Positions 6,743 through 61,777 are shown, numbered from the stretch's first letter. The stretch is 64,000 bases of DNA from a virus (IMGVR_UViG_3300042554_002438), one strand, 5' to 3'. Notes: generated from the letters alone by a model not told the origin. Made by a program: numbers and translations.

Positions 6743-6774
6743 CAAATGTAGGGTAAAAATGTTTAATAAGCAAA
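6743..6774 (-). promoter_or_regulatory. Bacteroidota sigmaA-type promoter for the LRR gene
   Basis: Minus strand TTTG-N20-TACATTTG. Confidence 0.7.
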
Positions 6775-6792
6775 TTTTCTTTAAAAAAAATG

Positions 6793-6799
6793 TATTTAT
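6793..6799 (+). promoter_or_regulatory. putative late promoter TATTTAT for rpsU
   Basis: GTATTTAT-ctat-ATG, 4 nt before ATG 6804. Confidence 0.55.
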
Positions 6800-6803
6800 C
6801 TAT

Positions 6804-6998
6804 ATGATAATTATTGATGTCAAAAAAACGGGTGGATTAGACCGAGCCCTTAAAAAGTACAAATATAAAGTTGCTAAGATAAAAATGATTGATGATTTGC
6901 GTGAAAAACAAGATTTTACAAAAAAATCTGTAAAAAGACGTGATGAAATTAAAAAAGCAACATACATCCAAAAGAAAAAACAAGAAGAATTAGGTTAA
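6804..6998 (+). CDS. rpsU: ribosomal protein bS21, Bacteroidia type; true start ATG 6804 rather than 6708
   Basis: MIIIDVKKTGGLDRALKKYKYKV...LREKQDFTKKSVKRRDEIKKATYIQ matches the bS21 pattern (IdrALKrfKrk...R.r..F.KpSv.rR). Confidence 0.93.
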   Translation: MIIIDVKKTGGLDRALKKYKYKVAKIKMIDDLREKQDFTKKSVKRRDEIKKATYIQKKKQEELG

Positions 6999-7430
6999 TT
7001 TACCCTCGAAAAGGTTTTTACCCATCTCATCTTGTTTAATGAATGTCTTAACCAGGGAACCTGCTCTTGCATTAGCCTCATCTTCAATCTCACCCCCAAT
7101 GTCTTGTACTGGATATTCAATTCTACCTTCTTGGTGCTGTAATTGATGTACAAGTTCGTGTGCAATACTTCTTAAAATATCACCCAACATTCTGTTTTTA
7201 CCGTACACAACAACCAACTTATCATCATCTCTATAATATGCTGTTGTTTTAACCCCATTTGATTCGCGATCAAAAACTATTTTACATGTAAACTTATCAG
7301 CTAACCCTAGTTCATTACAACAAAAATTGAGAAATTTATTTGTCGTGGCTATTTTCTTATCATCAAATGATAGGTCTTCATCCACCAATAACTCAAATTT
7401 TTCTTTTAATAAAGTTTCAAATAATTTCAT
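6990..7430 (-). CDS. HEXXH zinc metallopeptidase-like protein; likely start 7430
   Basis: DILRSIAHELVHQLQ and a downstream E in EIEDEANARAG. Confidence 0.75.
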   Translation of the reverse strand: MKLFETLLKEKFELLVDEDLSFDDKKIATTNKFLNFCCNELGLADKFTCKIVFDRESNGVKTTAYYRDDDKLVVVYGKNRMLGDILRSIAHELVHQLQHQEGRIEYPVQDIGGEIEDEANARAGSLVKTFIKQDEMGKNLFEGKLT

Positions 7431-8305
7431 TATAATAGATTGTTTATATTTCGTTCGATGTAACATGTATCAAATAACGGATCGACATTATTATCTAATT
7501 CAATAAAGTTTTTAGCATTCAGCGCAACATAACCTTGTTTGACCATGTTGGTAACTAAATAATCATATCCATCCCAAATTATTTCAACACTCTCCATAGT
7601 TTCGAGAGGCAAGAAATAACTATCATTATATTTGGTTTTAATATTAGTTGCTATTATTCTTTCAATAGGGCTGAACACCATTAAATATTTATCTAAATTA
7701 GTGTTATCATTACTTTTTGCTATTATTTTATATATTATACCAGCATCATTAACGGTTAAACCAGTTGGTAAAAAAACTAAATGATGATAATCTTCGGATG
7801 TATTTAAATCTATAACCACAATGTTCTGCTTTGCCGCTTGAGTTAGGTCACCAAAAATTACATCATAAGTATTATATGTATCGCCACTAATAACTTCTTG
7901 TGTCCAACCACTTGTTATCAATTGATAGCTATGGTTAGATACACCTATTGAATATTGCGGGCCATTTAATTCAACATCATTTATATCAATATTAAATGAG
8001 CCACCATCCCCCATGCCAATTGTGGCGATTGTACCATTTAGTGTGTAACCAGTTATTGCCGCACCCTCAGCTAATTTATACCAGTTGCTTAAAGTTGTTG
8101 CTGGTAATGTTTTTAACAACCAAACTCCATTTTGATCTGGGTCTGGATCACTTGTTACAGCAACGGTCATACCCAAATAAGGGTAAGGTAAAGAGTTGTT
8201 TGTTAGCTCAGATAATGTTACTACCGTAGCTCTCGCATCTAACGGCCCCGCAATTAACGCTTCAAAGTTAGCAGAAAAATTAAAAACACCAGGTACTCTA
8301 GCCAT
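7430..8305 (-). CDS. putative virion structural protein
   Basis: N-terminal FNFSANFE...PLDARATV.T..EL...Y.GM.VAV module of a kind seen in Bacteroidota phage structural proteins. Confidence 0.6.
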   Translation of the reverse strand: MARVPGVFNFSANFEALIAGPLDARATVVTLSELTNNSLPYPYLGMTVAVTSDPDPDQNGVWLLKTLPATTLSNWYKLAEGAAITGYTLNGTIATIGMGDGGSFNIDINDVELNGPQYSIGVSNHSYQLITSGWTQEVISGDTYNTYDVIFGDLTQAAKQNIVVIDLNTSEDYHHLVFLPTGLTVNDAGIIYKIIAKSNDNTNLDKYLMVFSPIERIIATNIKTKYNDSYFLPLETMESVEIIWDGYDYLVTNMVKQGYVALNAKNFIELDNNVDPLFDTCYIERNINNLL

Positions 8306-8307
8306 AA

Positions 8308-9702
8308 TTAAAATACTAATCTAATTCTTCTAGCACCAGCGGCTAACCCAGTGTGTGTGTACCTAGTGTAATTAACACTATTACCTTGAATAGTATTTGT
8401 TACAGCACTTGTGCTAAATTCACTTATTTTATTTGCCGAATCAAATTGGTTTGAAACCACGTTAAAATAATTAACCGCAACCAAAGGTCTAGCAGTTGTC
8501 CAAGCAACTGGTATCTCAAATTTATGCTTAACAGAATTATCTTCTGGTTCCGCAACAAAAAGAATCTCAATATTATTACTGTACAACATTGACACTAAAG
8601 TTTGTTTTGTCAACGTGTTAATGTTAACTGTTGTTCCAAACAAAGGATAAACACCCTCAAATAAAGCGTTTGCGTTAACCGTACCAGCATTTGTAAAATT
8701 AGTATCGATAAAGTTTGATCCGTCATCATAAACTGGTTGTTGACCAACATTATAATCGACAGCAAGTTGCCATTGATTTAGACCTTGAACAACTACATAA
8801 TTATTTATTGTGGTGCTGTCAGTTAATGAGCTACTAACATTAGTAATCGTACCAACAATACCTTGACCCGTATAATTGTAATCAATTGGGTTACCCATGT
8901 ATTTAACTGGTTGGCCTGTCACTGTCGATTGGCCTCTGGTATATCCAGCGTTAAGTGTTAAATTATTTGTGTAGCCAATTTCGATTAGAGAAGCGTTAAA
9001 CGGCGCCCCTTCACTTAAAGATGCTGAGCTATAAAATATCGTTGGTGCTATTGCTGGATAAAATATTTCTTGTATAATTTCGTGTATCGTCTTACCACCA
9101 ACAAACGGGCTCGAATTTATCGTTATACCACCGACCGTTTTTTTAACTGGGTTTGGGTTTTCAAAAGTAAACGCTGGAGCCAAATCGATTACAATCGTGC
9201 CACCACCAGCTTGTTCTAAAATTTCTGTAATATTTGTAGTTCCACCTGTTGTTGCATTTGTGGTACCACCTGTTATTTCAGTATCGCCACCAGATGCGTT
9301 TATGGTTACAATTGTTTTGCCACTGATAGGATCGTCTGTTACTGTAACATTATCACCAACAAAATTTAATACAGTTCGCTCTACTAATGGTATACCTTCG
9401 TCTTCAATTGTAACATAACCGCCAGGTACTCCAGTTCCAATTTGTCTCCAAACTGTATATGTGGTTGGGCCTTCTGTATAAGATGTGATAAAATTACCAG
9501 AACCATACTGATTATACACATATTCAGTATGTGTCATTTCGCAGTAGTAAATTATACCAACCGCGTCAATTTTTCTCAACACATATTGACCCTCTAAATA
9601 ACCTTTTTTAGTCCACTCCGCGATATTAAGGTAGACTAAGTTACCATCTAATTCGGTGTGACTTAAAGGCCTGGGTAAATTGTTTCTTAAAATTAATGAC
9701 AT
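8308..9702 (-). CDS. putative tail fibre/virion structural protein
   Basis: N-terminal LILRNNLPRPLSHTELDGNLVYL; Gly/Thr-rich beta-type sequence. Confidence 0.65.
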   Translation of the reverse strand: MSLILRNNLPRPLSHTELDGNLVYLNIAEWTKKGYLEGQYVLRKIDAVGIIYYCEMTHTEYVYNQYGSGNFITSYTEGPTTYTVWRQIGTGVPGGYVTIEDEGIPLVERTVLNFVGDNVTVTDDPISGKTIVTINASGGDTEITGGTTNATTGGTTNITEILEQAGGGTIVIDLAPAFTFENPNPVKKTVGGITINSSPFVGGKTIHEIIQEIFYPAIAPTIFYSSASLSEGAPFNASLIEIGYTNNLTLNAGYTRGQSTVTGQPVKYMGNPIDYNYTGQGIVGTITNVSSSLTDSTTINNYVVVQGLNQWQLAVDYNVGQQPVYDDGSNFIDTNFTNAGTVNANALFEGVYPLFGTTVNINTLTKQTLVSMLYSNNIEILFVAEPEDNSVKHKFEIPVAWTTARPLVAVNYFNVVSNQFDSANKISEFSTSAVTNTIQGNSVNYTRYTHTGLAAGARRIRLVF

Positions 9703-9772
9703 TTATCGTGTATGCTTGGATATTCTTAAATTATTATCTATCCATAAATAGTTCGATACACGATAAATGTCA
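9697..9772. repeat. perfect 17-bp inverted repeat covering the start codon of 8308..9702 and enclosing a TATTTAT motif
   Basis: TGACATTTATCGTGTAT (9697-9713) / ATACACGATAAATGTCA (9756-9772); 42-nt loop with ATAAATAG at 9744-9751. Confidence 0.92.
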
Positions 9773-9787
9773 CCACAAATTCATATC

Positions 9788-10453
9788 TTATTTTTTCTTT
9801 CTTTCAAGAATCGAGTCAATCATACCATATTCTTTAGCTTCTGGTGATCTCATCCAATAATCCCTCTCAGAATCTTTATATACTTTGTCATAATCCTGGC
9901 CAGTATGTTTAGATATGATCTCATAAAGTTCGGTTTTTAACTTACCAATTTCCTTTGCTGTGATTTCAATATCAGTGGCTTGACCCTCAGCGCCCCCCAA
10001 AGGTTGGTGGATCATTATTCTTGAGTGGGGTAAGGCATATCTTTTACCCTTTGCCCCAGCACAAAGTAACACAGCGGCCATAGATGCGGCTAAACCCGTA
10101 CATATTGTTGATATTTCTGGTTTAATATACTGCATTGTATCGTAAATACCCAAACCAGCATAAACAGAACCACCAGGTGAGTTTACATAGATCTGAATTG
10201 GGGCTTCTTTGTCAATTGATTCCAGGTATAATAACTGAGCTTCTATAATATTGGAAACTCGATCATCAATCGCCGTACCCAAAAATATAACTCTTTCCAT
10301 CATTAATCTGGAAAACACGTCAATTTGAGCGACATTTAATTCGCGTTCTTCCATAATGTATGGAGTAACCGAACTCCTGTAATCACTTAATGTGATACTT
10401 GAAATACCCATATGCTTCGTTGCATAGTTTTTAAAATCGTTACCAATATTCAT
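9788..10453 (-). CDS. clpP: ATP-dependent Clp protease proteolytic subunit
   Basis: VFSRLMMERVIFLG, YVNSPGGSV, CTGLAASMAAVLL (catalytic Ser), RIMIHQPLGG (catalytic His). Confidence 0.97.
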   Translation of the reverse strand: MNIGNDFKNYATKHMGISSITLSDYRSSVTPYIMEERELNVAQIDVFSRLMMERVIFLGTAIDDRVSNIIEAQLLYLESIDKEAPIQIYVNSPGGSVYAGLGIYDTMQYIKPEISTICTGLAASMAAVLLCAGAKGKRYALPHSRIMIHQPLGGAEGQATDIEITAKEIGKLKTELYEIISKHTGQDYDKVYKDSERDYWMRSPEAKEYGMIDSILERKKK

Positions 10454-10480
10454 ATTTGTTTTTTTATAAATTTAATTAAT

Positions 10481-12157
10481 TTAGTTTAAATAATCAACCC
10501 ACATTTTATGATTTACACCCATTTTTTCACAAAAAGATTCAAAAGTTTTTTTCGAATAAACAAATCTAAAATTAACACTAGAGGCTAAGTTATTATTGTT
10601 ATTCTGAAAAGCTTGTGTGAAATTACTATGTGTGTATTTCATTTTGAGATTATTATCGTTAGTTATTCTAACCCTTTCGTATGCTGACATAGTGATTGGA
10701 TTAAAGTATATTGTTGATATTACGTTTTTGTTTTTAACAATGTTAAAAGATAATTTAATACTATCAAAATTAAAAACGCCGTGTCTAATAAAATTAAAAT
10801 CTTCTTCTGGTATTTTATTAATGTTTCTTAAAGAATAATTAACACTTATCTTTTCGTCTTTTTTAAAATATCTACCAAACCTTTTTAGTGTTTTATCATC
10901 AATTTTATAAGTACCAATGGCTACCGCTTCGAATAAACAATTTGCAATTTTTTTAAGTATTACTTCACAGTTTTTATAAGTCCATGTTGTGAGAAGAGTA
11001 TTCTCATGATTGTTTATTTTTATTTTTATACCAAAAAATTCAAATATTTTAAGCACCTTAAATATGTGGCCATCACCAGAATCTTTAAAACGTGAAATAT
11101 CATAATAGTTTAGATTGTACATTTTAGAGTATTTTTCCATTAAATCATACTCAGCGATTTCATTATTACTTGTAAAAAGTGTTGGTTTAAACACATTTTG
11201 ATTTAACTTACCGCCATTAAATTCATAAGCTAGTCTTAATTCGGTATAATCAATCCCATTTAACGCATGTGCATAACTTGTGGGATAACCAGCGCCATTT
11301 GGTTTTAAAAGGAATTCGTTTTCCTGGTTAACAATCAAACGCTTATACTTAAAAAGCAAACTGAAAAGTAATTCTTTGTCTTTGATTTTATAATAATCAC
11401 TCATGTAATCGACTATACCCAGTCCACGATATTTAGCTTTGTTTCTATTAAAAATATGTTGAAAATAGTATATAAAATTATATGAGATAATATCTATACT
11501 GTTTACCTTAAGATAATTTAAAAATGGGAACAACTCTAAAGCGGATGTATTTGGTGGGGTATATATAGGTTCCTCATCAAAAAAAGTTTTAACAATTGCT
11601 TTATAATCATTTGTTAGATTATGATAACCCAATTTACCATAAAACAACCTTATTGCCGTGTCCATATTCAAGTTATTTCTACTATCACTGATCATGCAAT
11701 TTAGTATTCGAGATGTCTCCATATTTGAGACATTTTTACGAATAAAGGTAGAATACCTTTTACCCATTTTTGATTTCCTATAAACACTGTAATCACCAGT
11801 TGTTTTATTAATTGTTAAGATCCTGGATGTTTTGGTTGTGATTTTAAATCTTTTGTATTTCAACTTTTTAACTGGCACCAATGTTTTGGCGAAAAGATAT
11901 TGTTTTAACGATATCGTGTTGTTGGTTAAATTTTCTGAAACAACAAAAGTTTCCCGATAAACGGTAACCTCACCATTGTTAGCCATTTCTTTTTTAAACT
12001 CATCCGAATCGACCTCAATGTGTTTTTGTCGCTCAAACGTGTGCTCAGATCCCCCCTCATCTTCCGAAAAAATTGCCTGAATGGTTGATACCACTGTTTC
12101 GGTTACTGATTTTGTAAGCTTCTCATCAACAAATTTGTAATGAATGATTTCTTCCAT
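10481..12157 (-). CDS. hypothetical protein, possibly PcfJ-like
   Basis: 558 aa ORF with its own host-type promoter; no decisive motif. Confidence 0.7.
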   Translation of the reverse strand: MEEIIHYKFVDEKLTKSVTETVVSTIQAIFSEDEGGSEHTFERQKHIEVDSDEFKKEMANNGEVTVYRETFVVSENLTNNTISLKQYLFAKTLVPVKKLKYKRFKITTKTSRILTINKTTGDYSVYRKSKMGKRYSTFIRKNVSNMETSRILNCMISDSRNNLNMDTAIRLFYGKLGYHNLTNDYKAIVKTFFDEEPIYTPPNTSALELFPFLNYLKVNSIDIISYNFIYYFQHIFNRNKAKYRGLGIVDYMSDYYKIKDKELLFSLLFKYKRLIVNQENEFLLKPNGAGYPTSYAHALNGIDYTELRLAYEFNGGKLNQNVFKPTLFTSNNEIAEYDLMEKYSKMYNLNYYDISRFKDSGDGHIFKVLKIFEFFGIKIKINNHENTLLTTWTYKNCEVILKKIANCLFEAVAIGTYKIDDKTLKRFGRYFKKDEKISVNYSLRNINKIPEEDFNFIRHGVFNFDSIKLSFNIVKNKNVISTIYFNPITMSAYERVRITNDNNLKMKYTHSNFTQAFQNNNNNLASSVNFRFVYSKKTFESFCEKMGVNHKMWVDYLN

Positions 12158-12174: not shown

Positions 12175-12205
12175 CAAATATAAGGAAGAATTTTTAATAA
12201 ACAAA
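12175..12205 (-). promoter_or_regulatory. Bacteroidota sigmaA-type promoter
   Basis: Minus strand TTTG-N19-TATATTTG, 17 nt upstream of ATG 12157. Confidence 0.7.
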
Positions 12206-12231
12206 AAAAAATGGGGGAAATTTCCCCCATT
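12203..12231 (-). terminator. intrinsic terminator of hsp20
   Basis: Palindrome AATGGGGGAAA|TTTCCCCCATT (12210-12231) followed by a U tract on the minus strand. Confidence 0.85.
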
Positions 12232-14825: not shown

Positions 14826-15194
14826 TCAAAAAACCAAATCAATCCCCTCTTTATTATCATAAGAGTCCATAATTTCGGTTATTTTATGATTGACCCAAGA
14901 TGGTAGTTTATCGTAATACTTTCTAAATAAAGTATAATCGGATTTGTCAATATCAAAAATTTCTGTTGGTGTATCTTCAAATGTGTTTTTTCTTTTTTCA
15001 TCAAAATACAATTCACCCACCTCACAAAAATATACCTTACTCAAGTTTGGGACTAAGTCTATTGATAAGTAAATATGTGATTTATCTGGCGATATGTAGT
15101 AGATTTTTAATTTTTTGTTTTCATAGTCGTAGACTCTGAATTTATAAATAAATAAGCTGTTAAGGTATTTAACCTTTTTATCAAAGTTTCTCAT
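14826..15194 (-). CDS. hypothetical protein
   Basis: 122 aa ORF. Confidence 0.65.
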   Translation of the reverse strand: MRNFDKKVKYLNSLFIYKFRVYDYENKKLKIYYISPDKSHIYLSIDLVPNLSKVYFCEVGELYFDEKRKNTFEDTPTEIFDIDKSDYTLFRKYYDKLPSWVNHKITEIMDSYDNKEGIDLVF

Positions 15195-15212
15195 CTTTTT
15201 ATCATTTAGTGA

Positions 15213-15257
15213 CTATTTATAGTAGAGCGTAAAAGATAAAAAACTTTTAAATAAATA
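15213..15257. promoter_or_regulatory. divergent pair of TATTTAT motifs
   Basis: CTATTTAT on + at 15213-15220 (towards gene 15267); ATAAATA at 15251-15257 (TATTTAT on -, towards gene 15194). Confidence 0.45.
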
Positions 15258-15266
15258 TCTCTAACT

Positions 15267-15662
15267 ATGATAAAAAGAAAAATTAAAGTAACCGAAAAAC
15301 AGATTGAGATGCTAGCTGAATCAGAAATGGCTAAGCTAAAAAAAGAAGACATTGAAAGTATGATTGGTGATCCAGAAGATAGGAAAATTGAATACCCAAG
15401 CGCTGGTGAAATAGAAGCCATAAAAAATGATATGGACATGCCATCGGGTGATGAGAGTGATGCAATTGACCCTAAGGATATGAAAACACCACCTCATGAA
15501 TTAATAGAATATTTGGATAAAATTGAAGAGGCTAAATCCATATTAAGTAAAGTTGCCGCTAAAGAGGACAACGAAAACATTAAAAACAGAATTTATGCAC
15601 ATTATGAGAAAGCTCAAAAATTAGCTTTCGAATTAATAAAAGAATTTGGTATCGTTCACTAA
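15267..15662 (+). CDS. acidic hypothetical protein, possible head-internal protein
   Basis: MIKRKIKVTEKQIEMLAESE N-terminus; followed by a terminator. Confidence 0.75.
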   Translation: MIKRKIKVTEKQIEMLAESEMAKLKKEDIESMIGDPEDRKIEYPSAGEIEAIKNDMDMPSGDESDAIDPKDMKTPPHELIEYLDKIEEAKSILSKVAAKEDNENIKNRIYAHYEKAQKLAFELIKEFGIVH

Positions 15663-18931: not shown

Positions 18932-18942
18932 GTTTATATATA

Positions 18943-18974
18943 ATAAATAAGGGCTTCCCGAATAGAAAGCCCTT
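18943..18974 (-). terminator. intrinsic terminator whose U tract overlaps a TATTTAT motif
   Basis: Minus strand AAGGGCTTTC-tattcg-GGAAGCCCTT then ATTTATT. Confidence 0.7.
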
Positions 18975-19007
18975 ACCTTTTATAATATTAATAAAACTTA
19001 TGTAAAA

Positions 19008-21891: not shown

Positions 21892-21914
21892 ACTAATAAA
21901 TAGTTTAAATATGA

Positions 21915-26632: not shown

Positions 26633-27430
26633 TTATAAGAGTTCAAATAATTCCTTAGAATAGAACCTTAATTTTTTAATCGCCTTTTCTTTTATCTGGC
26701 GAACACGCTCTTTTGTTAGGTTAAGTTCCTCAGATATATCCTGTAACGTCAAGGGCTCCCCATCTAAACCAAAATACTTGGTTACAACGTATTGCTCAGA
26801 ATCCGTTAAATTAGATAAAACTATTTTAAGTCTATTAATTAACGAATCATGATCGTCAGAAAAAATCAAATCGGGTCTTTTCGAATTAACATCCTCAATC
26901 ACATCGTACATCGAATTACCTTCATCGTCAAAAGGTGCGTCTAAGTATGTTATTGTTGGTAAACCAAGAATACTGGTTGGTGTTTCGTTCTCGTCCGCAC
27001 TATACTCTTTTGGAGTCTCTTTGCGCAACTTATTCATTTCGTTAATAATGTTCACTGGTAGACGAATTGCCCTAGAATTTTCGTGTAAAGATTGCAACAT
27101 ACTTTGTTTTACCCACCAAACCGCATAAGAAAGGAATCTAACGTTGGTTTGGTCATAATTGTAGCGCTCTGCGGCTTTAATTAAACCATAATTACCCTCA
27201 GATATCAAATCAGATAATGATAAACCTTGATTCTGATATTGTTTTGCCATTGATATGACAAATCTTAAATTAGAATAAATTAACAAATCTTTCGACTTTT
27301 GGCATCCAGTTTTTATTTTATCAATTAGTTTAAATTCTTCCTCACGTGTTAGTGCTGGGTATTTTCTAACATCATAAAGGTAAAGATTAATTTCGGATTG
27401 GTCAATCCAGTGCGAGGTATCTTTGATCAT
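26633..27430 (-). CDS. rpoD: sigma70-family RNA polymerase sigma factor, Bacteroidota sigmaA-like (no region 1.1)
   Basis: NLRFVISMAKQYQNQGLSLSDLISEGNYGLIKAAERY...RFLSYAVWWVKQS...IRLP; region 4 TLQDISEELNLTKERVRQIKEKAIKKLR. Confidence 0.95.
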   Translation of the reverse strand: MIKDTSHWIDQSEINLYLYDVRKYPALTREEEFKLIDKIKTGCQKSKDLLIYSNLRFVISMAKQYQNQGLSLSDLISEGNYGLIKAAERYNYDQTNVRFLSYAVWWVKQSMLQSLHENSRAIRLPVNIINEMNKLRKETPKEYSADENETPTSILGLPTITYLDAPFDDEGNSMYDVIEDVNSKRPDLIFSDDHDSLINRLKIVLSNLTDSEQYVVTKYFGLDGEPLTLQDISEELNLTKERVRQIKEKAIKKLRFYSKELFELL

Positions 27431-59567: not shown

Positions 59568-59592
59568 TAAGAAAAATTATTTTATTGTAAAC

Positions 59593-59619
59593 AAAAAAGC
59601 CACCGTTTAGGTGGCTTTT
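59593..59619. terminator. intrinsic terminator of nrdA
   Basis: AAAAGCCACC-gttta-GGTGGCTTTT. Confidence 0.85.
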
Positions 59620-59623
59620 CTTG

Positions 59624-61777
59624 TTAACTTGAGCACCCAAAGCACTCAAATTGACTATTTTCTGGTTTTTTGGGTACCGCTTCAGTTGCACTACCCGATG
59701 ATAGTTTTGAGTTGTTTTCTATTTTAGATTTGGTTCTGGTATAATATGCACCAGACTTTAAACCGACTTTCCAAGCATACATTAAAGCGCTAGATATTTT
59801 AGAATATTTTGCATCAGAATGATAAACATTTAACGACTGCGATTGGTCAACATATTTGTTTCTAATCGCTGATAAATCTAATAACGTTTTTTGTGAAATC
59901 TCCCAAACATCTTTATATCTGTATCTTATATCTTGGGGAATTTCATTGATCATTTGTACACTCCCACCATTGGCGATAATTTTATTTTTAATATTATTAT
60001 CCCATATACCTAACTCATCCAATTCATTTACAAGGTGTTTATTTATTACCAAAAATTCGCCCTGACCAACTCTTCTAGTAAATAAATTTGACGTTACTGG
60101 TTCAAACGACTCAAATACACCCAGTAATATTGCAGATGACGCTGTTGGCATTAAACCAAGTAGTAATGAATTAAGCATCGGTATTGGTTCACCATTTGAT
60201 AATGGGCTCCACCCCTCAATATATGTTTCACCTTTTGAATAAGGGCTACCATCCCACGAGGGATAATTTCTATTTTGCTCTTTAGCCATGTTCATAGATT
60301 CAGTAACCGCAGCTTTGTACATTGTCTCGAAAATGTCAGTGTTCCATTTTTTGGCCTCCTCACTTTCAAAAGAAATCTTTTTCTTTGCAAAAAAGTCAGC
60401 TAAACCAGCTACACCAATCGCCAAAGATCTTTGATCCAACCCAGCTTTTTCACTCCAATCATCACTCCACTTATTTTTATCAATAACAGCGTTTAGCGCT
60501 CTAACCATGACTTTTGTACTCTTAGCTATACTTTTCAAATCATCGTGTTCAGCTAGGTTAATTGAACCTAATGTACATTGTGATGTATAACCTGGTTTTG
60601 ATACATTTGTAATTTCAATACAAAGATTACTTTGTTTAACAACACCAATATTATTTTGCATGTTTCTTTTATTCGCATTGTCTTTAAAGAATACATACGG
60701 TCTTCCACTCTCAACCTGAGCCTTAATAATCGCATCCCAAATTGTTTTTGGGTTTATTGGGGTGCCAATACCCAATTCAACAGCTTTATTATATAGTTCC
60801 ACAAATTCATTACCCCAAGTATCATGCAGTGGTTTTAAACCAGCTTTTTCAATATCATTGGGGCAAAATAAATACCAATCTTCATTATTGGTTAATTTTT
60901 CCATAAACAAGTCGTTAACAACAACTGCGGTAAATAAATCTCTGGTTCTCATTTGCTCGTCACCGATTGGTAGCGTCAATTCTAAGAAATCCATGATATC
61001 TCTATGCCATAAAGAAAGGTATAAAGCACAACTGCCAGAACGACTACCTTGTTTGTAAAATCTCATTTTACTTTGTACCATATCGGCTAATCTGACAACA
61101 CCACCAGCATTCCCATTAAATGAACCGACCATAGAATGGCGACTTCTCAGTGGATCGATTAACATACCAATACCAGCACCCTCTTTAGATGCGTAAGATA
61201 TTTTTGTAAGCGTATCCTCAATCCCATCAATACTATCGCTATGTAATGTGGTCAAATTACAAGAAATCATTCCATTTCTTTTGTCAATCCCCGCATTTGT
61301 GTATATCGGTGTTGCAAAGTTCATTCTTTTGTTTGTCAGTTCCTCAACAAACATTTTAAAATCTTTATCCGAACTTGATAAGTGTTTTGCCACTCTATTA
61401 TACATACAAGAGGGTAATTCTATTGGCATACTACCTTCTTTCATTGAATATTTTTTCAAGAATGTTGTTGCCGCGAAGAAATCATAGGTTAAATCAACTG
61501 GTTGTAATTCCTTACCAATTAACTTTGACTGTCTACTCAAAAGTAATCTACCACCTAAGGTCGAATAATCTGGGTGGTTTATTACTTTGTCGGCGGCCTT
61601 AAACGCAATTAGTTCATCCAATTCGGTGGTTGTCATACCATCGTATATCAAAGGAATAACTTCTTTGAATAACGCATCACCATCAACATTTAAATCTTTT
61701 GAGTTATTTTTTATTCTGCTCAAAATTTTATTAGGCATAAAAGCCTGAAAATCACCGTTTCTTTTTTTAATCCTCAT
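59624..61777 (-). CDS. nrdA: class Ia ribonucleotide reductase alpha subunit
   Basis: N-terminal ATP cone, MISCNL, SNLCIEI, MPTASSA, C-terminal CFGCSS. Confidence 0.97.
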   Translation of the reverse strand: MRIKKRNGDFQAFMPNKILSRIKNNSKDLNVDGDALFKEVIPLIYDGMTTTELDELIAFKAADKVINHPDYSTLGGRLLLSRQSKLIGKELQPVDLTYDFFAATTFLKKYSMKEGSMPIELPSCMYNRVAKHLSSSDKDFKMFVEELTNKRMNFATPIYTNAGIDKRNGMISCNLTTLHSDSIDGIEDTLTKISYASKEGAGIGMLIDPLRSRHSMVGSFNGNAGGVVRLADMVQSKMRFYKQGSRSGSCALYLSLWHRDIMDFLELTLPIGDEQMRTRDLFTAVVVNDLFMEKLTNNEDWYLFCPNDIEKAGLKPLHDTWGNEFVELYNKAVELGIGTPINPKTIWDAIIKAQVESGRPYVFFKDNANKRNMQNNIGVVKQSNLCIEITNVSKPGYTSQCTLGSINLAEHDDLKSIAKSTKVMVRALNAVIDKNKWSDDWSEKAGLDQRSLAIGVAGLADFFAKKKISFESEEAKKWNTDIFETMYKAAVTESMNMAKEQNRNYPSWDGSPYSKGETYIEGWSPLSNGEPIPMLNSLLLGLMPTASSAILLGVFESFEPVTSNLFTRRVGQGEFLVINKHLVNELDELGIWDNNIKNKIIANGGSVQMINEIPQDIRYRYKDVWEISQKTLLDLSAIRNKYVDQSQSLNVYHSDAKYSKISSALMYAWKVGLKSGAYYTRTKSKIENNSKLSSGSATEAVPKKPENSQFECFGCSS

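Follow-up and report, generated by a model that had tools for sequence, protein, structure and literature searches.

In the window analysed here, the 64,000 nucleotides (nt) of IMGVR_UViG_3300042554_002438 from a giant (jumbo) phage that is uncultured, of freshwater origin and has a host in the phylum Bacteroidota, a long RNA hairpin was identified between clpP and a gene for a protein of 464 amino acids (aa). In this hairpin the start codon of the 464-aa gene is buried, and the loop carries a promoter-like box. It is a selected RNA structure and not a product of chance. It probably serves as a transcript-specific translational switch: on read-through RNA the hairpin would silence the 464-aa gene, and a promoter in the loop would bypass it. 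This reading, which follows the hairpin switches of phage T4, is supported in silico.

The clpP gene, the 464-aa gene and the hairpin are all coded on the minus strand according to the open reading frame (ORF) calls. An inverted repeat at 9697-9713 and 9756-9772, with arms of 17 nt that are 100% complementary and 42 nt apart, was located by a repeat finder. In the sense RNA, 9772-9756 pairs with 9713-9697 in a perfect stem of 17 base pairs (bp), which G.U pairs lengthen to 19-20 bp (9774-9756 with 9713-9695). The upstream (5') arm at 9756-9774 is non-coding RNA and begins 13 nt after the clpP stop codon (9790-9788); the first base of its perfect 17-nt part is the 16th base 3' of the stop. The downstream (3') arm at 9695-9713 reaches from -11 to +8 in the 464-aa gene; it includes the AUG (9702-9700), with an in-frame TAA directly 5' of the ATG. 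Within the 42-nt loop, CTATTTAT is found on the coding strand at 9751-9744. It is part of the promoter-like box ACTATTTAT (9744-9752, minus strand), which lies 4 nt after the upstream arm and from which transcription would start at about 9739-9737.

The perfect repeat with the ATG in its downstream arm had been described in a first-pass annotation made from the sequence alone, together with the start of the upstream arm 16 nt past the clpP stop and the 42-nt loop with CTATTTAT. The repeat finder returned the repeat at the same coordinates, and the position of the arm and the content of the loop were recovered from the sequence. No terminator had been seen after clpP, and indeed a terminator scan of 9300-10600 reported no terminator-like site there on the coding strand. 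The annotation also called the promoter 'late' and the 464-aa ORF a 'virion gene'; both labels are interpretations and not observations.

When the RNA of 9800-9670 was folded, a stem of 20-21 pairs was obtained with a free energy of -28.5 kcal/mol (z-score, z = -3.85), and none of 200 shuffled sequences was equally stable. RNA from 9738 onward was near-unstructured in the fold (-0.4 kcal/mol). Across the window no other perfect inverted repeat within 120 nt exceeds 12 nt, and the chance expectation for a repeat of this kind is about 0.003 by a rough estimate. A repeat-family search found no further copy of the arms in the window. With one pair in the window and one copy per locus found by the covariance model described below, an origin of the arms from a repeat family or a mobile element is ruled out. 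In a search of the element against Rfam nothing reached the gathering score, and the two matches obtained were at chance level, far below it. A conserved small ORF in the loop was also considered (ATG GAT AGA TAA in the window), and is not present in the relatives.

Relatives of the locus were drawn from a protein database and from metagenome contigs. Full-length homologues of the 464-aa protein, with 31-80% identity, were found on metagenome contigs on which the gene order is the same: Ro60-like, Hsp20, ~570 aa, ClpP, ~465 aa, ~295 aa, ~146 aa, S21 on the other strand and a leucine-rich repeat (LRR) gene. The spacer length and the hairpin are kept in ten further loci (L001/L002, L003, L004, L005, L007, L008, L015, L085, L087 and L088), and the stem sequence occurs in seven different versions among the loci. 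The relatives' hairpins fold with -21 to -34 kcal/mol (z = -4.2 to -8.0). In all of them 13-15 nt separate the clpP stop from the first paired base, and the AUG always lies under the downstream arm, at loop lengths between 26 and 46 nt. In L087 (6386-6500) a 14-bp stem with a 26-nt loop precedes a 307-aa gene whose similarity is confined to the N-terminus, and in L006 (3937-4033) GACTATTTAT is retained and the hairpin is nearly lost. Homologues of the 464-aa protein at greater distance (L009-L068) were mostly found without clpP upstream and without the hairpin. At the DNA level clpP alone matched catalogued phages (identity 65-73%; huge phages of the Lak type and others), and no annotated relative of the locus was obtained from them; a single-protein scan of viral_contigs gave no relative either.

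In a MAFFT alignment of eight sequences, 96.1% of the cells are paired and double changes occur in 7 of the 19 pairs. None of 500 shuffles matched this covariation, and slid partners gave at most one. A covariance model built from this alignment finds exactly one sense copy per locus. With the model, 11 sequences were aligned, of which 94.7% of the cells are paired and in which 8 of the 19 pairs show double changes (21 cells; slid partners at most three); this second alignment is biased towards the modelled structure, and the MAFFT alignment is not. In L015, where protein identity has fallen to 31%, codon 2 is GCU and not UCA and the part of the arm in the 5'-untranslated region (UTR) is rewritten, and the non-coding upstream arm compensates; the resulting fold has -32.3 kcal/mol (z = -8.0). 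An altered codon 2 is matched by the non-coding arm in L085 and L088 as well as in L015. The mid-stem U.G and G.U pairs of L005, L085 and L088 correspond to A.C mismatches on the opposite strand. Because these wobbles pair only on the sense RNA, selection must act on this RNA and not on a cruciform or an antisense transcript. Owing to the covariation, the hairpin ranks among the cis-regulatory RNA structures with better support in such phages.

An inverted repeat around a promoter-like box is also a common operator layout, and the arms might be read as half-sites of a dimeric repressor or activator that flank the promoter, or as the arms of a cruciform. Such a DNA-level element is given hardly any weight here. 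The seven versions of the arms stay complementary through paired changes, with which a protein would need to co-evolve each time, the spacing of the arms varies between 26 and 46 bp, and the tolerance of wobbles on the sense strand only counts against a cruciform.

It is likewise very improbable that the hairpin terminates transcription or stabilises the 3' end of the clpP message. In the window the bases after the stem are U-rich (UUAAUUUU), as would suit a terminator, and they form the beginning of the coding sequence; in L015, L085 and L088, however, the stem is not followed by a U tract. The real terminators of the window, which are canonical and easily seen elsewhere in the sequence, consist of GC-rich stems with loops of 3-6 nt and long T runs, whereas the hairpin has an AU-rich stem with a loop of 26-46 nt and was not reported by the terminator scan. 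For a stabiliser of the 3' end it would be unnecessary to cover the AUG of the next gene.

The effect of the hairpin on the translation initiation region was expressed as an opening energy, which is the free energy needed to make positions -12 to +8 single-stranded. On read-through RNA (-150 to +60) of 11 relatives the opening takes 16.2-23.8 kcal/mol, whereas RNA starting 7 nt past the motif needs 1.4-5.4 kcal/mol. Compared in the -150 to +60 frame with the other genes of the window, the 464-aa gene has the highest value of 64 (17.8 kcal/mol; median 5.1, next 9.4). The computed folds thus support that the initiation region is hidden only on transcripts that carry the upstream arm. No sequence resembling a Shine-Dalgarno element was found before the AUG of the 464-aa gene. 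In Bacteroidota, mRNAs are without Shine-Dalgarno sequences, and initiation is tuned by structure and A-rich context (PMC6847099). The start of the 464-aa gene is placed correctly, since its N-terminus (M-[SA]-[LF]-[IL]-L-R-N-N) is conserved in the relatives. Judged from the footprint of ribosomes in general, the gap of 13-15 nt between the clpP stop codon and the helix should exceed the reach of a terminating ribosome.

The main rival to occlusion is a processing site or insulator of the ribonuclease III (RNase III) type. Here a cut in the duplex would separate the clpP mRNA from the cistron behind it and destroy the downstream initiation region, and occlusion would be secondary. Double-strand RNases need an unbroken duplex of about this length, or roughly two turns, as is known for E. 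coli RNase III and for sites of phages T7 and lambda. The stem of 17-20 bp is almost free of mismatches in all 11 relatives, and selection for unbroken pairing along the whole stem fits such a length requirement. In L087, however, the stem has only 14 bp, and at any loop length the downstream arm lies exactly over the AUG, which is needed for occlusion but not for processing alone. The RNase III hairpins between T7 cistrons and in the lambda N leader are likewise long intercistronic duplexes on polycistronic phage RNA; they usually have internal loops and enclose neither a promoter nor the next start codon. Processing as the function of the hairpin is regarded as unlikely. It would not exclude a translational switch, with which it partly overlaps, and it is compatible with a promoter in the loop.

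The box ACTATTTAT is invariant in 12 of 12 relatives and lies 2-4 nt after the upstream arm, whereas the rest of the loop drifts and varies in length. Seven of the 11 copies of CTATTTAT in the window are intergenic, although intergenic DNA makes up 4.4% of the sequence, and each of the seven points to the downstream gene; they comprise six minus-strand copies and one plus-strand copy, the latter in front of a gene on the plus strand. The sense intergenic enrichment has a binomial p of ~5e-8, and CTATTTAT ranks first of 168 words of the same composition (six copies against at most two). The copy at 59567-59560 follows a canonical terminator and stands at the head of a gp25 baseplate-wedge gene, a Baseplate_J gene and an extended series of large genes, and another copy stands before a 904-aa gene, which follows a 2554-aa giant. 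The copy before a 387-aa gene is conserved in three relatives, and in L088 the motif is also found before a paralogous fibre gene. Since the distance between motif and ATG varies from 4 to 46 nt, a role in ribosome binding is excluded and a promoter role fits.

Two further observations concern the placement of the motif. At 21892-21903 (minus strand) CTATTTAT lies just 4 nt before the ATG (21891) of a 115-aa gene; if the box is a -10-type element, the mRNA of this gene would be leaderless or nearly so. Canonical terminators at 59588-59626 and 18932-19007, before the gp25 gene and a 159-aa gene, respectively, are immediately followed by a (C/T)TATTTAT box; at both sites transcription must restart.

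The invariance of the motif in a drifting loop could also be explained by a trans-acting factor, such as a protein, a small RNA or temperature, that opens or closes the hairpin; the conserved ACUAUUUAU in the loop would then be an RNA recognition element and not a promoter. A weaker second module with the same layout at 15194-15278 (see below) would agree with this. Nevertheless, the same word is found before at least five other genes without an enclosing hairpin, as well as directly after terminators and down to 4 nt from an ATG, which fits a DNA promoter. A recognition element for a trans-acting factor is therefore considered improbable.

A second class of boxes, TAnnTTTG, often with TTTG 19 nt upstream, is found before the genes for ribonucleotide reductase, primase, the Ro60-like protein and the LRR protein, and before the operon formed by a 558-aa gene and clpP. 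In front of this operon an intrinsic terminator (12203-12228, minus strand; GC stem 12228-12213 followed by a T run) closes the upstream Hsp20 unit, with the same layout in seven relatives. It is followed by a host-type Bacteroidota promoter at 12175-12205 (minus strand), which consists of a -33 TTTG (12205-12202), a 19-nt spacer and the -7 element TATATTTG (12182-12175). The order of terminator, TTTG, spacer and TAT[AC]TTTG recurs in the relatives with a spacer of ~19-20 nt. The promoter is conserved in 6 of the 7 relatives' loci examined (L002-L005, L087 and L088); in L001 the called start lies further upstream and the region is not shown. The consensus of the Bacteroidota sigma-A promoter is -33 TTTG and -7 TANNTTTG (PMC6847099), and the operon promoter fits it exactly, including the 19-nt spacer. 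The loop box differs: it has TAT where TTT is required, and TATTTAT is followed by a variable base without a fixed terminal G. The two boxes form separate motif classes, and ACTATTTAT would be a promoter of a class other than that of the clpP operon.

In the proposed switch, the host-type sigma-A promoter would transcribe the 558-aa/clpP operon, and because no terminator is found after clpP, operon transcripts would run into the 464-aa gene. On this read-through RNA, 9774-9756 would pair with 9713-9695 and lock positions -11 to +8, including the AUG, in a helix of 17-20 bp. The helix should block binding of the 30S subunit, because the host phylum initiates without Shine-Dalgarno pairing and needs an unstructured initiation region. 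It should not be melted by the terminating ribosome, because the clpP stop lies 13 nt before it. The ACTATTTAT box in the loop would act as a second, phage-specific promoter, whose reading probably involves the sigma factor of the phage or some other phage factor. Transcripts from this promoter would begin ~35 nt upstream of the AUG, without the upstream arm and with an open initiation region. The 464-aa gene, and probably also the two genes behind it, would be translated only from the loop promoter, presumably late. The analysis shows the structure with its conservation and covariation, the contrast in energies, and the two motif classes with the genes they accompany; we infer the promoter function of the motif, its start position, the timing and how strongly translation is affected.

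A temporal switch of the T4 type had been proposed in the first-pass annotation, which had suggested folding the read-through and late 5' UTRs and looking for covariation in related phages. Every part of the proposal that could be tested in silico came out in its favour: the compensatory double changes in 8 of 19 pairs, the contrast in opening energies between the two RNAs (16.2-23.8 against 1.4-5.4 kcal/mol), and the invariant loop motif of a separate class.

Several points speak against the switch. Read-through from clpP is assumed only from the fact that no terminator is seen, a host-type promoter is no proof of early expression, and 'early' and 'late' are themselves deduced by analogy, from promoter type and gene function. 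There is no evident reason why an early tail-fibre-like protein should be harmful. When the seven sites and the relatives were inspected by eye, no -35-like partner and no conserved TTTG were found upstream of the motif, and no direct link ties the motif to the sigma factor of the phage. The locus L006 (49% protein identity) keeps the motif and shows weak occlusion only (z = -0.8, opening 9 kcal/mol); the hairpin is therefore dispensable in some lineages. Finally, a perfect duplex of 17-20 bp could equally be a substrate of RNase III, with cleavage instead of or besides occlusion.

In phage T4, the genes e, soc, 49 and I-TevI carry initiation-region hairpins on early or middle read-through RNA, the late promoters omit the 5' strand of the hairpin, and gene e is repressed ~100-fold (PMC3014915). 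This precedent had been given correctly in the first-pass annotation. The proposed logic is common to both systems: no terminator is seen upstream, a stem-loop sequesters the initiation region on long transcripts and a box of another promoter class lies inside it, whose transcripts would be unable to form the stem-loop, in a layout that is conserved in related phages. The two systems differ in phage lineage, which is unrelated, and in host phylum. There is no Shine-Dalgarno sequence to hide in the present phage, where the AUG and its A-rich flank are buried, and the stem is much longer (17-20 bp), closing a loop of 26-46 nt. The box is ACTATTTAT and not TATAAATA, the gene is tail-fibre-like, and the present system is known from sequence and computed folds. 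The T4 late box TATAAATA stands on the coding strand and is read by gp55. On the coding strand of the present phage CTATTTAT is the reverse complement of the core of this box, and identity of the motif with the T4 late box was rejected on orientation; on the strand opposite CTATTTAT the sequence is nATAAATAG, which in 5 of 7 sites faces away from the genes. The element would work like the T4 switch, yet it falls outside the T4 late-promoter family.

Sigma cascades are known from other phages, with gp55 and a single -10-type late box in T4, and gp28 and gp33/34 in the Bacillus phage SPO1. The present phage resembles them in having two promoter classes, a sigma-family protein of its own and a box of the late type for which no -35 element is evident. 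Its sigma-70-family gene (26633-27430, minus strand) encodes regions 1.2, 2 and 4, and the best NCBIfam similarities are of the RpoS/RpoD type, all below the cut-offs. With its RpoS/RpoD-like regions 2 and 4 the protein is unlike gp55, and so far it has no tie to the motif. From its sequence it is a candidate reader of the TATTTAT class. In a different phage group (L019, L022, L025, L027, L028, L030, L042, L050, L054 and L061), distant homologues of the fibre-like gene are found after a terminator and a conserved (G/T)(G/A)ATAAATAA box, which lies ~22 nt (about 20-30) before the ATG and is similar in orientation to the T4 late box and not to TATTTAT.

The 464-aa gene (8308-9702, minus strand) encodes a protein whose C-terminal half is all-beta in the structural model and resembles phage tail and tail-fibre proteins. 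The predicted local distance difference test (pLDDT) score exceeds 90 for residues 220-464, and the N-terminal half is disordered or uncertain. In BFVD, the C-terminal half has its best structural neighbours among the tail and tail-fibre proteins of phages that are crAss-like or infect Tenacibaculum, with E values down to 5.7e-15, and collagen repeats occur in some sequence homologues. Identity with a major capsid protein was rejected, as the model is all-beta and immunoglobulin-like without an HK97-like match. From the model, a virion or tail-fibre-like function of the protein is plausible but not proven. Genes of 291 and 158 aa (6990-8305, minus strand) are packed directly behind the 464-aa gene in an order conserved in the relatives, and they probably share its transcription unit. 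A bS21 gene (6759-6998, plus strand; Pfam Ribosomal_S21, 3.7e-09) lies on the opposite strand within the module and is also present in L003, L007 and L087.

The conserved 558-aa gene (10481-12157, minus strand) is the first gene of the upstream operon. Homologues occur only in the same phage group, where they are always encoded just before clpP. No match of the protein was found in Pfam, PHROG or NCBIfam, and its model, of reasonable confidence (pLDDT 77.6), gave no fold match above noise (best E 0.06 in Foldseek, best Z 4.8 in VIA-align). A portal identity is unsupported for lack of a family or fold match, which is no proof against a structural role; the protein could be a partner or adaptor of ClpP. 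The clpP gene (9788-10453, minus strand) encodes a ClpP proteolytic subunit of 221 aa (Pfam CLP_protease, 2.8e-78). It scores 362.7 bits against the NCBIfam equivalog NF011091 (cut-off 361) and 94 bits against a ClpP-related head-maturation model (cut-off 120). A prohead protease, as suggested by PHROG names, was rejected, because the cut-off of the cellular-type equivalog is reached and that of the head-maturation model is missed. The neighbours of clpP are host-like auxiliary genes (Hsp20, Ro60-like and S21), and from its sequence ClpP has the look of an auxiliary protease derived from a host, not of a prohead protease.

A lead to a second copy of the design comes from a perfect 12-bp repeat (15194-15205 with 15267-15278) with a 61-nt spacer, located between two divergent genes. 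On the plus strand CTATTTAT (15213-15220) lies in the loop and the downstream arm begins with the ATG of a 131-aa gene. On the minus strand ATATTTAT (15258-15251) lies in the loop and the other arm ends at the ATG of a 122-aa gene. In L087 and L088 a compensatory change from U:A to C:G preserves the pairing. The pairing is AU-rich and much weaker than that of the hairpin behind clpP, with an opening energy of 9.1 kcal/mol for the minus-strand gene (tied third of 64).

It is possible, though on balance doubtful, that translational insulators with a promoter in the loop are a general design in jumbo phages of Bacteroidota, where they would replace terminators between transcription classes, and that the module at 15194-15278, as a mirror-symmetric version, gates both divergent genes at once. 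If so, burial of the start codon would be a routine and evolvable device of temporal control in a phylum without Shine-Dalgarno initiation, and the design would give direct handles to define the TATTTAT transcription class. Indirectly, yet pointedly, the hairpin behind clpP indicates that the TATTTAT box is a real promoter and belongs to a class apart from the host-type promoters, because the structure makes sense only if transcription starts between the arms. With the switch as the probable function, the read-through silencing device of T4 would have arisen independently in jumbo phages of Bacteroidota, whose hosts initiate without Shine-Dalgarno sequences, and the arrangement of arm, box and arm may offer a compact, testable part with which phage timing and the control of translation can be studied in Bacteroidota.

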